A stretch of DNA of 56,145 nt from a phage: the sequence record PZ386950.1. One strand, written 5' to 3'. The translations under genes and the position numbers were made by a program. Below, piece after piece: positions 3,586 through 44,015 of this stretch. Position 1 is the stretch's first letter. Each line of letters opens with the position of its first letter. Below the pieces are notes generated by a model. The model searched no databases, had not been told where the DNA came from, and saw only the letters and a program-made list of their open reading frames with translations.

Positions 3586-3732
3586 TCAAAACCCCTTACT
3601 TTTAGCAATTTGTTGTGCACGTTTTTTAGTGTGACCAGTGACAATCAAGCGTTTAATTTCGGCTTTACGACGTTCAAAGTGATCGGCGCGTGAATTTTCA
3701 ACCAGTGACCGGCTAATATTTCTCGGATTCAT
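3586..3732 (-). CDS. small basic protein (about 48 aa), first gene after promoter
   Basis: ATG at 3732 about 30 nt downstream of predicted -10 at 3764-3769; not in ORF track (below 60 aa); translation MNPRNISRSLVENSRADHFERRKAEIKRLIV... Confidence 0.3.
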   Translation of the reverse strand: MNPRNISRSLVENSRADHFERRKAEIKRLIVTGHTKKRAQQIAKSKGF

Positions 3733-6027: not shown

Positions 6028-6267
6028 ATTATCGTATACAGGCGGTAAACCCATTGCTGCCTGAACAGACCGTTTTTCGTATTCCTCCCGAAGTTTCTGA
6101 AGCCGTTCAATACCGATGTCACAACCACGCATAATATCAGCGCACAGATCGTTGTAGGTCGCTTCAGATTGCTTGCTGTGTGGGTAATCAACACAGGATG
6201 GATCTGCCATAATGACTTTCGGCAGATACGCGACAGTATCGCCCATTGCGTTTTTAAATATCGTCAT
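6019..6267 (-). CDS. hypothetical protein
   Basis: 82-aa ORF; 3' end overlaps promoter copy 2. Confidence 0.4.
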   Translation of the reverse strand: MTIFKNAMGDTVAYLPKVIMADPSCVDYPHSKQSEATYNDLCADIMRGCDIGIERLQKLREEYEKRSVQAAMGLPPVYDNLK

Positions 6268-6593
6268 AAATACGACCCCACAATTGCTGCACAGTTGACG
6301 ATCGCTAAACGCGTTGCTTTTTCACGGTCTTCTCCGTGGCTAACTGGTTGCTTATAACTAACGCCAGTGTCAGGGTTATTAACCGTCACTTCGTTGTCAC
6401 GAATATCCAGATCCATGTACATGTTAACCATCAGACTGAAAGCATCCTCATTACGTGTAAGAGGGTTCCACAGGCGACCGTTGCCTATATCAATACCTTC
6501 GTTTATGTAACGTTCGTCGTACGCGACGTAATATTTACCATGGATTTCAGCAGCCCGTGCTGCGTTGACTAATAAATCACGATTGTTCATCAT
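6264..6593 (-). CDS. hypothetical protein
   Basis: 109-aa ORF, 4-nt overlaps with both neighbours. Confidence 0.5.
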   Translation of the reverse strand: MMNNRDLLVNAARAAEIHGKYYVAYDERYINEGIDIGNGRLWNPLTRNEDAFSLMVNMYMDLDIRDNEVTVNNPDTGVSYKQPVSHGEDREKATRLAIVNCAAIVGSYL

Positions 6594-6949
6594 ACCCGTC
6601 CTGTTGTACGTTTATATTCTTGAACACAGTAATCAAAGTATTCACCATATGTTTTAACATAATTAATTAGTTCAATTATTACGTCACCGTGGCATGGTTT
6701 AGGGGAACAGAAACAAACTAAATCTTTACCATCTAATGATAAAATATCAGATTTAGTTATGTTTCCTTTCAAACATTCATTCCATAACCATGTTTTATAA
6801 CGAAATAATGTCGCACCTCGTTCTTCATTTTCCGAAAGTTTAAAAGGGTTTGCGAATTTACTTTGTGTTAACCCTTTACCACCGCGACCGATATAAACAG
6901 CACCTTCTGGGATTTGTTTACCAATACGATAGAAGTTTAACACTCTCAT
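6590..6949 (-). CDS. DUF4326-like protein
   Basis: track ORF trimmed to ATG at 6949 (MRVLNFY...); motifs FANPF and CFCSPKPCHGD recalled as DUF4326 hallmarks. Confidence 0.45.
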   Translation of the reverse strand: MRVLNFYRIGKQIPEGAVYIGRGGKGLTQSKFANPFKLSENEERGATLFRYKTWLWNECLKGNITKSDILSLDGKDLVCFCSPKPCHGDVIIELINYVKTYGEYFDYCVQEYKRTTGRV

Positions 6950-6950
6950 G

Positions 6951-7455
6951 TTACATGTTCCCCGTTGATCCAAACCCGCCATTACGCTGACTATCAACAT
7001 CTGGTAATTCTTCCACTTCAACCAGGTTAACAGGTTCGACACGTTCAACCATGAGCTGACAAACACGTTCACCGTCTGCGATAGTCTGTAATTTCTGCCC
7101 GTGGTTAGTCAGCGTAACGTAGTATTCTTCTTTGTAATCACGATCACCGATACCCACACAGTTGATTAGTGACAAACCGTGTTTAAGACTCATGCCGGAA
7201 CGTGGATAGAATTTAATGCAATATCCGCTATCAACTGACATTTTCAGACCAGTGGGGATCATAGCGCGGTCGCCGGGCCATAATGCGATTGTTCCTGCAA
7301 CAACCGGACGTTCCACTTTAGCGCCTGATTCTGTGAATATAGTTACCGATTCTTCCCACAGACAAGCACGAACGTCTAACCCTGCGCTGTCTGGTGTTGC
7401 CCGTGTCGGAAGTTCAGCGTGGGGTGTTAGTTTTTTTGATATACAGGTTAGTCAT
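6951..7455 (-). pseudogene. dut: dUTP diphosphatase interrupted by frameshift in A7 run
   Basis: all five dUTPase motifs present (AGLDVRA, PRSG, GIGDRDY, RVCQLMV, GGFGSTG); motif 1 lies upstream of the track ORF in a frame with no start codon; ATG at 7455 with RBS GAGGAA is in the +1 frame and joins after the A7 run at 7431-7437. Confidence 0.75.
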
Positions 7456-7489: not shown

Positions 7490-7531
7490 ATGTTAGTGTT
7501 ACTGCTTGCAATGTGTCAAGAATTATTTTAA
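7490..7531 (-). promoter_or_regulatory. sigma70-type promoter with UP element (copy 3)
   Basis: minus-strand TAAAATAATTCTTGACACATTGCA then about 17-18 bp and TAACAT-like -10. Confidence 0.55.
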
Positions 7532-7562
7532 ACTTCTGTCAACGTTAACCAATGAGGAACGA

Positions 7563-8222
7563 ATGATGTTTGAACATCCGTGGAACATACCTGCATATGA
7601 TGCTGAAAGTGAAAAACAATCACTTGACTATCGAATGTACGCACCAATTTTAAGAAATCCGTCACAAATTATGGAGAATGCTGATGACTTTGAAATCTTT
7701 GAAAAACGCCCTTGTGGTCCAGCAACACCTGTCAAAACAAAACTGTTAATGACACCGAAAGCCCGTGGTAATACTTACGAAGAATTCATTGCGACCGGGT
7801 GGAATGACGACCAGTTAGTCGAACATGGTTATGCTGTTCGTACTACAGACAAACGTTCCTGGTCACCAATGACCGTCGGAACTGAAACAATTACACCACC
7901 TTCAAACTGTCGGTGCACATTCACCCCTGTTCAACAACCATCAACAGCGTCTGACTTGCTGAAACAGGCTGAACAGCTACTGACAGAACGTGGTAAGCAG
8001 TATGACACGTCTGGTCAGGAACGTTCGTCAGCTAAAATCGTTGCTGCGTTTAACACAATTACCGGGCGCGACTTAACACCGGGTGAAGGGTGGTTGTTCC
8101 TGATGTTGTTAAAAGCGGTTCGTTTCTATTCCAACACTGAAACACCACATCGTGACAGTCTGGAAGACCTGATCAGCTATGCTGCATTACACGCAGAGGA
8201 ATATCTTAACGATGAACGGTGA
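7563..8222 (+). CDS. hypothetical protein with conserved 35-aa module and all-alpha C-terminal domain
   Basis: track ORF trimmed to ATG 7563 (RBS tgaggaa); contains TYEEFIATGWNDDQLVEHGYAV module shared with the SSB-like protein. Confidence 0.5.
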   Translation: MMFEHPWNIPAYDAESEKQSLDYRMYAPILRNPSQIMENADDFEIFEKRPCGPATPVKTKLLMTPKARGNTYEEFIATGWNDDQLVEHGYAVRTTDKRSWSPMTVGTETITPPSNCRCTFTPVQQPSTASDLLKQAEQLLTERGKQYDTSGQERSSAKIVAAFNTITGRDLTPGEGWLFLMLLKAVRFYSNTETPHRDSLEDLISYAALHAEEYLNDER

Positions 8223-12255: not shown

Positions 12256-12662
12256 TAAATGTAAAAGTCAGCAAAACAGACCCCGGTTTACGAATGGTAT
12301 TCGGCTGGGGAACGATTTGTAAGAAAAGAAATTCTGAAAACGGTTTGTTAGAGGAGTACATCGACACTGACAACGAAATATTTCCCGAAGATGTTGTTCT
12401 AAAAGCATGGTTGGAATTCATGTCTGGCGACCAGCGTATTATGGACAATATGCACAATGAACAACCTGTAGGGAAAGTTGTGTTTGCGTTCCCGATGACT
12501 GAAGACATTGCGGAAAGTTTTGGGCTGGTTGATAAACTGGATCAGACAGGCATCATTGTTGGTACGTTGATAACTGATGACGAAGTTTTGAAAAAGTTTC
12601 AGACTGGTGAATATACGGGCTACAGCATCGGTGGTTCAGCTTATTATAAGGATGTGGAATAA
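12252..12662 (+). CDS. putative prohead protease (S78/U35-like catalytic region)
   Basis: MHNEQPVGKV and TGEYTGYSIGG resemble His and Ser motifs of HK97-type prohead proteases as I recall them; position before scaffold and capsid. Confidence 0.45.
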   Translation: MINVKVSKTDPGLRMVFGWGTICKKRNSENGLLEEYIDTDNEIFPEDVVLKAWLEFMSGDQRIMDNMHNEQPVGKVVFAFPMTEDIAESFGLVDKLDQTGIIVGTLITDDEVLKKFQTGEYTGYSIGGSAYYKDVE

Positions 12663-15416: not shown

Positions 15417-15770
15417 ATGCGTAATTCATATGACCCGTCACTGAAATATGTTTTCACCCGTCCGATGCTGTGGAACGGTAAACAGATGTCCGCTGGCGAT
15501 AAAGTATCAACATCAAAAGCTACCCCGGCTGTTTTAAATGCCCTTGTGCGTATGCGCCACATTGAACCAGCTACTGCGACCGTTGAAGAACCAGTGACTA
15601 TAGCAAACGAAGAATCGGCATCAACCACATCTGCTGAAATCCGACGTGATGCGCCAAAAACCTATAACGTTTATGTTATGGGTATGCCGATGAATTCAGA
15701 ATCGTTTAGTAGTAAAAGTGCCGCTGCTGAATGGTGTGAATCTCAAGGCTTGACATATAACTATTCTTGA
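15417..15770 (+). CDS. hypothetical protein
   Basis: ATG 15417 with RBS GAGG; 117 aa. Confidence 0.5.
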   Translation: MRNSYDPSLKYVFTRPMLWNGKQMSAGDKVSTSKATPAVLNALVRMRHIEPATATVEEPVTIANEESASTTSAEIRRDAPKTYNVYVMGMPMNSESFSSKSAAAEWCESQGLTYNYS

Positions 15771-19428: not shown

Positions 19429-19488
19429 TTGCGTAATTTGTACAGAACTATTACTATCTAATCGTCTACTACATAAAAGGTAAAAACC

Positions 19489-43771: not shown

Positions 43772-44015
43772 TATTTTCATACTTGTATTTTGGATAATCA
43801 TCGTTATACGTATAATTATTTGTGCTGTCATACAAAGAAAAATGATTGATTTTTATTATTCTGATAAAAGTGGTTGGGACACACATCAACAGAGTATGTT
43901 TGATGCTTACCCACAATTAGATACTTTCAAAATGATTTTTAAATTCTGGGTGTGGCCTATGTCAAAATTCTATCCTGAATACAGGAAAGGTAAAAACCAT
44001 GAAAAACATATTTGA
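43758..44015 (+). CDS. small membrane protein
   Basis: MLITSIFILVFWIIIVIRIIICAVI hydrophobic N-terminus. Confidence 0.45.
   Translation: MLITSIFILVFWIIIVIRIIICAVIQRKMIDFYYSDKSGWDTHQQSMFDAYPQLDTFKMIFKFWVWPMSKFYPEYRKGKNHEKHI

Follow-up and report, generated by a model that had tools for sequence, protein, structure and literature searches.

In the dUTPase gene (dut) of phage PZ386950.1, an A homopolymer that is six bases long in most related alleles has one base too many, which breaks the reading frame after codon 8. Based on a comparison of natural alleles, this A tract is probably a real slippage hotspot that recurs across the phage group, not the site of a one-off sequencing error. For the seven-A form (A7) found in this genome, the reading that we favor on balance is a real, recent slipped-strand null mutation. 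Throughout, the window is the whole 56,145-nt stretch of DNA that was analyzed, the first position of which is the ATG of terL.

A single extra base interrupts the dut reading frame

When the minus strand of the window was read directly between positions 6800 and 7600, a GAGGAA sequence (7468-7463) was found ahead of an ATG (7455-7453). From this ATG, the zero frame continues as ACT AAC CTG TAT ATC AAA AAA ACT AAC ACC CCA CGC TGA, which amounts to 13 sense codons and a stop at 7416-7414 on the minus strand. By the same direct reading, the A run is exactly 7 nt long (7437-7431, minus strand). The +1 frame is closed on its 5′ side by a TGA (7454-7452) that overlaps the ATG, is open from 7451, and translates from 7430 as LTPHAELPTRATPDSAGLDV...RNGGFGSTGNM without interruption to a TAA at 6953-6951. 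These readings bear out the first-pass annotation, which had described a frame ending after 13 codons behind ATG 7455 and its ribosome-binding site GAGGAA, with the dUTPase motifs continuing in the +1 frame; all five motifs and the match to PF00692 lie in that frame, upstream of its stop. The predicted peptides are YIKKLTPHAELPTR across the frame-restored junction and YIKKTNTPR for the zero-frame product.

Residues 1-8 of the 13-codon product (MTNLYIKK) are the conserved dUTPase N terminus of all relatives, which in the Klebsiella-phage relatives reads MSNLYIQR. In a protein search, 28 records had a query coverage of at least 80%, and the top 24 of these 28 matches (9NA/Sasha and Klebsiella-phage relatives) align from residue 1 in one piece. 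Because the relatives share this N terminus and align from residue 1, ATG 7455 is the genuine start. An alternative start or re-initiation was considered and rejected: in the list of open reading frames, the dUTPase frame contains no ATG, GTG, or TTG between the upstream TGA (7454-7452) and GTG 7316, and this GTG, the first start in that frame, lies past motif I. The full-length protein therefore cannot be initiated from the sequence as assembled.

The features of the locus are collected in Table 1. The AVIO78A record has a promoter annotated at the position equivalent to the putative one listed there; as a pattern match, the latter would make dut the first gene of a leftward transcription unit.

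Table 1. Coordinates of features at the dut locus of the window
Feature	Position	Strand	Basis or remark
Putative sigma-70-like promoter (TTGACA, 18 nt, TAACAT)	7490..7519	-	Consensus scan, 10/12 matches; pattern match only
Shine-Dalgarno sequence GAGGAA	7463..7468	-	7 nt 5′ of ATG; (G)AGGAA core kept in all relatives
Zero-frame mini-ORF: dut start codon, 12 codons (MTNLYIKKTNTPR), and TGA	7414..7455	-	
A7 homopolymer, site of the extra base (T7 on the plus strand)	7431..7437	-	
dUTPase body, +1 frame, 159 codons and TAA, five trimeric-dUTPase motifs	6951..7430	-	Translation, PF00692, PDB matches
Motif I SAGLD, repaired residues 23-27	7374..7388	-	Aligned to 8y1q/1dud; 5′ of any usable internal start
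Motif V RNGGFGSTG, repaired residues 157-165	6960..6986	-	Aligned to 8y1q/1dud
Longest start-codon remnant (GTG, 121 aa)	6951..7316	-	Without N-terminal strands and motif I
DUF4326 gene, 119 aa, 2 nt past the dut stop	6590..6949	-	PF14216 at 3.2e-20

The repaired product has the features of a trimeric dUTPase

As had been proposed, deletion of one A from 7431-7437 yields a single full-length dUTPase. The repaired protein has 167 aa, scores 68.4 bits against the Pfam dUTPase family PF00692 (E=6.5e-19; Pfam cut-off, 22 bits), and matches the solved dUTPases 8y1q (5.8e-25) and 1dud, the E. coli Dut (4.3e-21). With the templates AGxD (I), PRSG (II), G-x-x-D-x-DY (III), R-[IV]-x-Q (IV), and R-x-x-GFGS-[ST]-G (V), the motifs were found in canonical order as SAGLD (residues 23-27), PRSG (84-87), GIGDRDY (101-107), RVCQL (131-135), and RNGGFGSTG (157-165). 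Motif III departs from the usual G-(hydrophobic)-ID-x-DY in having a Gly where most members have a hydrophobic residue, and in the comparison with E. coli Dut (1dud) a segment of ∼20 residues after motif I (roughly 33-55) falls outside the HMMER alignments. The protein shares its 167-aa length and N terminus with the dut products of phages 9NA, Sasha, AVIO78A, PDP46, and Bas82 (97-99% amino acid identity to the closest), whereas its own frame is broken after codon 8 by the extra A.

As assembled, no uninterrupted ORF spans the complete domain with its motif I. On its own, the 121-aa remnant reaches 59.4 bits against PF00692, with a match that covers profile positions 24-129 only. Because the N-terminal strands and motif I are absent from it, this remnant would, from established knowledge of the fold, not be a functional dUTPase. 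In every sequence feature save the intact frame, the gene is that of a trimeric dUTPase.

Relatives and genome context of the dut locus

PZ386950.1 is, by its sequence, a 9NA/Sasha-like E. coli siphophage. The window is ∼96-97% identical to AVIO78A, PDP46, BDX09P1, Bas82, PJ16, and 536P12, and the Salmonella phages Sasha and 9NA are ∼84% identical to it in the dut region. The window itself was found neither in the phage collection (∼97% identity at best) nor among complete E. coli genomes, and six of its proteins that were queried had no identical counterpart. A 504-nt dut CDS is present in every annotated relative that was fetched. Comparison with related phages had been suggested as a check on the extra base, and in all eight relatives that were aligned (8/8) the 504-nt CDS goes together with an A6 run, which confirms the extra base relative to the homologs. 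In the Klebsiella-phage relatives, the N terminus MSNLYIQRL is coded with ATT CAA CGA CTC and has no homopolymer, so the A tract is a feature of the Escherichia/Salmonella clade.

The DUF4326 gene of the window sits between dut and a conserved 109-aa gene. The close relatives compared have no DUF4326 gene there, and homology jumps from 6606 to 6961 (BLAST breakpoints), which marks DUF4326 as an inserted accessory gene. No exact match to the DUF4326 protein was found on record. At this mosaic junction, the boundary of the DUF4326 insertion, the last two dut codons encode NM in the window versus RV in the close relatives; a protein from a Salmonella Java contig (P0004) likewise ends in GNM. In L032 (ENA ERZ940926, pig gut metagenome; positions 399-739), a conserved 114-aa gene 3′ of dut is called as two genes of 77 and 36 aa, probably another accessory-gene frameshift in this phage group.

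A divergently transcribed DUF6378 gene (7506-8222, plus strand) also adjoins dut. Its C-terminal domain is conserved, its N-terminal length ranges from 179 to 354 aa among the gene calls of relatives, and the longest ORF in the window starts at TTG 7506, a start that is uncertain. Homing-endonuclease-like genes (DUF723, T5orf172, CapR, MUG113) adjoin terL, the portal gene, or the Mu-F-like head gene in some relatives (L027, 4459-5817; L031, 4380-5225; L039, 4318-5121; L041, 4318-5241) and are absent at those positions of the window; their variable occurrence suggests that they are mobile insertions.

Tract length varies among natural dut alleles

Broken alleles are invisible to searches for full-length proteins, so contigs were fetched by way of neighboring genes, using exact matches to the TerL, portal, 109-aa, NinH, and 60-aa proteins of the window, and the tract was read in the DNA. 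These contigs, together with genomes and earlier pattern matches, gave 34 distinct dut alleles. An A6 tract with a 167-aa frame was found in 31 of the 34, one of which (L035) is broken elsewhere; one allele has an in-frame A9 tract (KKK, 168 aa) and is present in two independent metagenome contigs; and two alleles have A7. Thus dut is frameshifted in 3 of 34 alleles, twice at the A tract, and intact in the other 31. Both lysines (codons 7-8) are encoded by AAA in all 34 of these Escherichia/Salmonella-clade alleles, whereas the Klebsiella-phage clade has CAA CGA (Gln-Arg) and no tract.

The two A7 alleles are those of the window and of L024 (Logan, SRR10682580), where the tract lies at 15703-15709. 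The L024 dut is Sasha-like and only 86.6% identical to that of the window (flanks, ∼96%), from which we conclude that its A7 arose as an independent event. No other homopolymer deviation private to L024 was found among 70 comparable runs. Truncated forms are rare among the collected proteins: in the Sasha-like cluster, 12 of 14 distinct sequences are full length; the 129-aa product of L024 occurs on one contig, and the truncated product P0086 is an N-terminal fragment only, apparently cut by the end of its contig.

The A9 allele (MTNLYIKKKLTP) is identical in L039 (JGI 3300045988 Ga0495776_016607) and in L041/L051 (ENA ERZ27304637 k141_156094). Its recovery from two independent assemblies shows that the length of the tract truly varies in nature. 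Nine A's is also the length at which slippage by bacterial RNA polymerase and in replication becomes appreciable. In the broken A6 allele, L035/L045 (ENA ERZ27336974 k87_131959, a 58-kb metagenome-assembled contig), the tract is kept and a GGG in motif I is shortened to GG at codon 25 (GCGCCGGGTTAG to GCGCCGGTTAG), with a stop at codon 26, and a 121-aa remnant is called as the gene. This unrelated 1-nt deletion shows that frameshift alleles of dut exist in wild populations.

Among 26 homopolymers examined between positions 3700 and 10700 of the window, no coding run other than that of dut occurs in three lengths; those of the portal gene and of small genes at 6073-6322 are invariant in up to 21 contigs. 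The exact A7 35-mer was not found in IMG/VR, and scans for A6 and A7 patterns in IMG/VR, JGI metagenome contigs, and GTDB genomes gave A6 forms only. The alleles nearest to that of the window are 19-20 nt away from it, some with A6 and some with A9, so that gain of one base by A6 and loss of two bases from A9 are indistinguishable as origins of its A7.

Homopolymers elsewhere in the assembly

The homopolymers of the window were compared with those of three full relative genomes. Six of 153 comparable runs of at least 5 nt differ from at least one relative, and two of the 153 (the dut run and an A5/A6 difference at 43992) are private to the window. When only the 43 comparable runs of at least 6 nt are considered, 41 match every relative and only the dut run is private to the window; all five comparable 7-nt runs agree with the relatives. 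A tblastn search with 384 ORFs of relatives against the window revealed no other gene that is split or truncated specifically in the window, and the window contains no ambiguous bases. The raw megablast list shows hundreds of "indels," which were set aside as alignment noise, being mostly compensated pairs in divergent segments; one such pair at 12332/12342 is an artifact that leaves the protein frame unchanged. The assembly of the window is not generally error-prone.

Other length differences were seen in these comparisons. The intergenic run at 43992-43996 is A5 in the window and A6 in AVIO78A, PDP46, and BDX09P1, and forms part of the spacer that separates a Shine-Dalgarno-like AAAGG from an ATG (caggaaaggtaaaaaccATG). 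At 19482-19486, a near-identical motif has A5 in the window and AVIO78A and A6 in PDP46 and BDX09P1. In the DUF6378 gene, the run at 7702-7706 (plus strand) is A5 in the window and seven other contigs, including AVIO78A, and A6 in BDX09P1 (OZ035775.1), where it cuts the ORF to 181 aa. BDX09P1 has further private homopolymer differences at window positions 1900, 5261, and 15983; given these private differences, this unannotated assembly may carry homopolymer errors or mutations.

Origin of the A7 allele

The dut gene is under strong purifying selection, with a pN/pS of 0.09-0.15 against 13 homologs. In the window, the body of the gene has two private changes, both synonymous, and shows no decay. 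An undecayed body in a gene under such selection means that the lesion is either very recent or not real. According to earlier work cited in a passage of a preprint (bioRxiv 10.1101/2024.03.13.584857), the host enzyme by itself does not suffice to exclude uracil from the progeny DNA of T5, which fits the purifying selection seen on dut.

The phage is a virulent 9NA/Sasha-like E. coli siphophage from a group across which dut is conserved. In the explanation that we favor, the A6 tract formed by codons 7-8 (AAA AAA, Lys-Lys) would act as a natural slipped-strand hotspot, and mispairing at this short poly-A during replication would generate +1 (A7) and +3 (A9) variants, of which those in frame would persist and those out of frame would appear as sporadic null alleles and be purged by selection. 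Upon a change from A6 to A7, ribosomes that start at the normal ATG would stop after 13 codons, and the 159-codon body would be out of frame. As there is no alternative start, the allele would be null or severely leaky; it would also be very recent, and the phage would then depend on host Dut for low dUTP. We infer that the phage DNA itself has the extra base, which would thus not stem from sequencing, that the truncated products have no activity, and that the loss of dut is tolerated owing to host Dut. Since dut would be the first gene behind the putative promoter, the stop at codon 14 could in addition be polar on downstream genes, including DUF4326, which would be an added cost.

We lean towards a real mutation on the strength of the two A7 assemblies, which are clean otherwise, the natural A9 variation, and the frameshift in L035. 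From the run counts, we put the probability that random errors struck one and the same run in both of these otherwise clean assemblies at about 1 in 20 to 1 in 80. Against a real mutation, purifying selection together with a flawless gene body is exactly the pattern that an artifact would leave.

A sequencing or assembly artifact, in which the true tract is A6 (or A9), dut is intact, and the extra A exists only in the consensus, is accordingly a plausible reading, one that we place somewhat short of probable. Calls of +1 in homopolymers are a classic error of pyrosequencing, Ion Torrent, and nanopore sequencing. The gene is perfect save for one base, with 97-99% protein identity to intact relatives and only the synonymous private changes in its body; it is under strong selection; A7 is absent from every close relative, from IMG/VR as an exact 35-mer, and from the pattern scans; and both A7 alleles are singletons. 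However, the remainder of the 56-kb assembly has no homopolymer problem, as judged from the agreement of its 7-nt runs and of its runs of at least 6 nt with those of relatives, and random error does not predict that the same tract should be A7 in L024 and A9 in L039 and L041.

The 5′ poly-A might instead be kept as an ON/OFF switch of the dUTPase, as at a contingency locus, with A6 and A9 as ON and A7 and A8 as OFF states, which we consider improbable. It is equally hard to credit that populations keep making OFF (A7/A8) and restored ON (A6/A9) forms of dut, with OFF transiently favored in some hosts. If this were so, OFF forms could evade a host defense or satellite that senses Dut, as SaPIs do in staphylococci, and the in-frame A9 would be the trace of a former OFF allele whose frame was restored. 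The tract does lie in the 5′ coding region, has three natural length states (A6 in 31 alleles, A7 in 2, and A9 in 1) that include out-of-frame lengths arising twice independently, and has both lysines encoded by AAA throughout the Escherichia/Salmonella clade; by its sequence, it thus resembles a contingency locus at the level of description. Yet A6 is short for a high-rate switch, the Klebsiella-phage clade has no tract at the same position, and enterobacteria in any case favor AAA for Lys. Only 2 of the 34 alleles are OFF, each seen once, and such rarity speaks against strong maintenance. Classic bacterial contingency loci have longer tracts than the 6-9 nt seen here, where the variation is known from alleles of different phages and contigs.

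Staphylococcal phage Dut acts as a de-repressor of SaPIs (Dut-Stl), which provides a precedent for selection on a phage dUTPase beyond dUTP hydrolysis and a conceivable reason for recurrent loss. We know of no benefit of dut loss for these phages and of no Dut-sensing satellite or defense for 9NA-like phages. A literature search for coliphage defenses or satellites triggered by Dut found nothing relevant beyond the Dut-Stl precedent and parallel dUTPase mutations reported for an evolving T5-like phage.

Regulated production of full-length dUTPase from the A7 allele, by +1 ribosomal frameshifting or RNA polymerase slippage, is very improbable, and the slippage-dependent expression that the first-pass annotation had offered as one of its alternatives is disfavored with it. 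In its favor, tRNA-Lys re-pairs perfectly one base forward on AAA-A, and the +1 frame is open across the 13-codon window, so that a +1 shift at any point there would yield a protein close to the native one. A low background leak is also possible, as unprogrammed frameshift suppression in E. coli reaches 1-10% in aggregate, through -1 events (PMC10861913). On the other side, the split layout is not conserved: 32 of 34 alleles are in frame across the run (31 A6 and 1 A9), and the two A7 alleles are unrelated and were each seen once. In the zero frame, the A-site codon that follows the run is ACU, which is no stop codon; in the +1 frame, it is CUA. CUA is a rare codon, and known +1 sites such as prfB have the reverse of this ACU/CUA context. 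Direct reading found no Shine-Dalgarno-like stimulator just 5′ of the run, and the fold of the 101 nt downstream is not more stable than that of shuffled sequences (z = -0.95), so no stimulatory RNA structure was seen 3′ of the run. Neither a conserved two-frame layout nor a slow codon or stimulator of the kind expected for programmed +1 frameshifting was thus found.

For transcriptional slippage, the needed event would be a 1-nt deletion in the transcript, and the run, at A7, is under the ∼8-9 nt at which bacterial RNA polymerase slips. E. coli RNA polymerase did not slip detectably on runs shorter than eight A's, nor were deletions seen on poly(A) (PMC6260861), and slippery runs typically show signs of being selected against from about nine bases (PMC1088944). 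The annotations of the relatives include no phage RNA polymerase. The locus resembles Thermus dnaX (A9), Shigella mxiE, and the A9/T9 sites of IS elements in that a sense-strand A run joins two overlapping frames. Genes expressed by transcriptional slippage have runs of 8-9 nt or longer and a conserved two-frame layout (PMC1088944), whereas here the run is A7, a deletion is needed, and the layout is not conserved. Significant rescue at the level of RNA or the ribosome is unlikely.

Implications

As a homopolymer slippage frameshift, the lesion falls in a well-known class and is ordinary biology. With slipped-strand pseudogenes and hypermutable tracts it shares the expansion of a 5′ run by a single unit, natural polymorphism (A6, A7, and A9), and independent recurrence; the new element, a modest one, is that this tract is a recurrent hotspot across the phage group. 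The hotspot will keep yielding apparent frameshifts in new assemblies of these phages. In the record, the gene should be annotated as a frameshifted dut (pseudo or "sequence needs verification") rather than split into a short hypothetical ORF and a truncated dUTPase or labeled as programmed slippage.

If the lesion is real, the isolate is a natural dut-null of a 9NA-like phage and thereby a tool for determining how far such a phage depends on its own dUTPase versus host Dut, a dependence that bears on the uracil content of progeny DNA and on its sensitivity to Ung.
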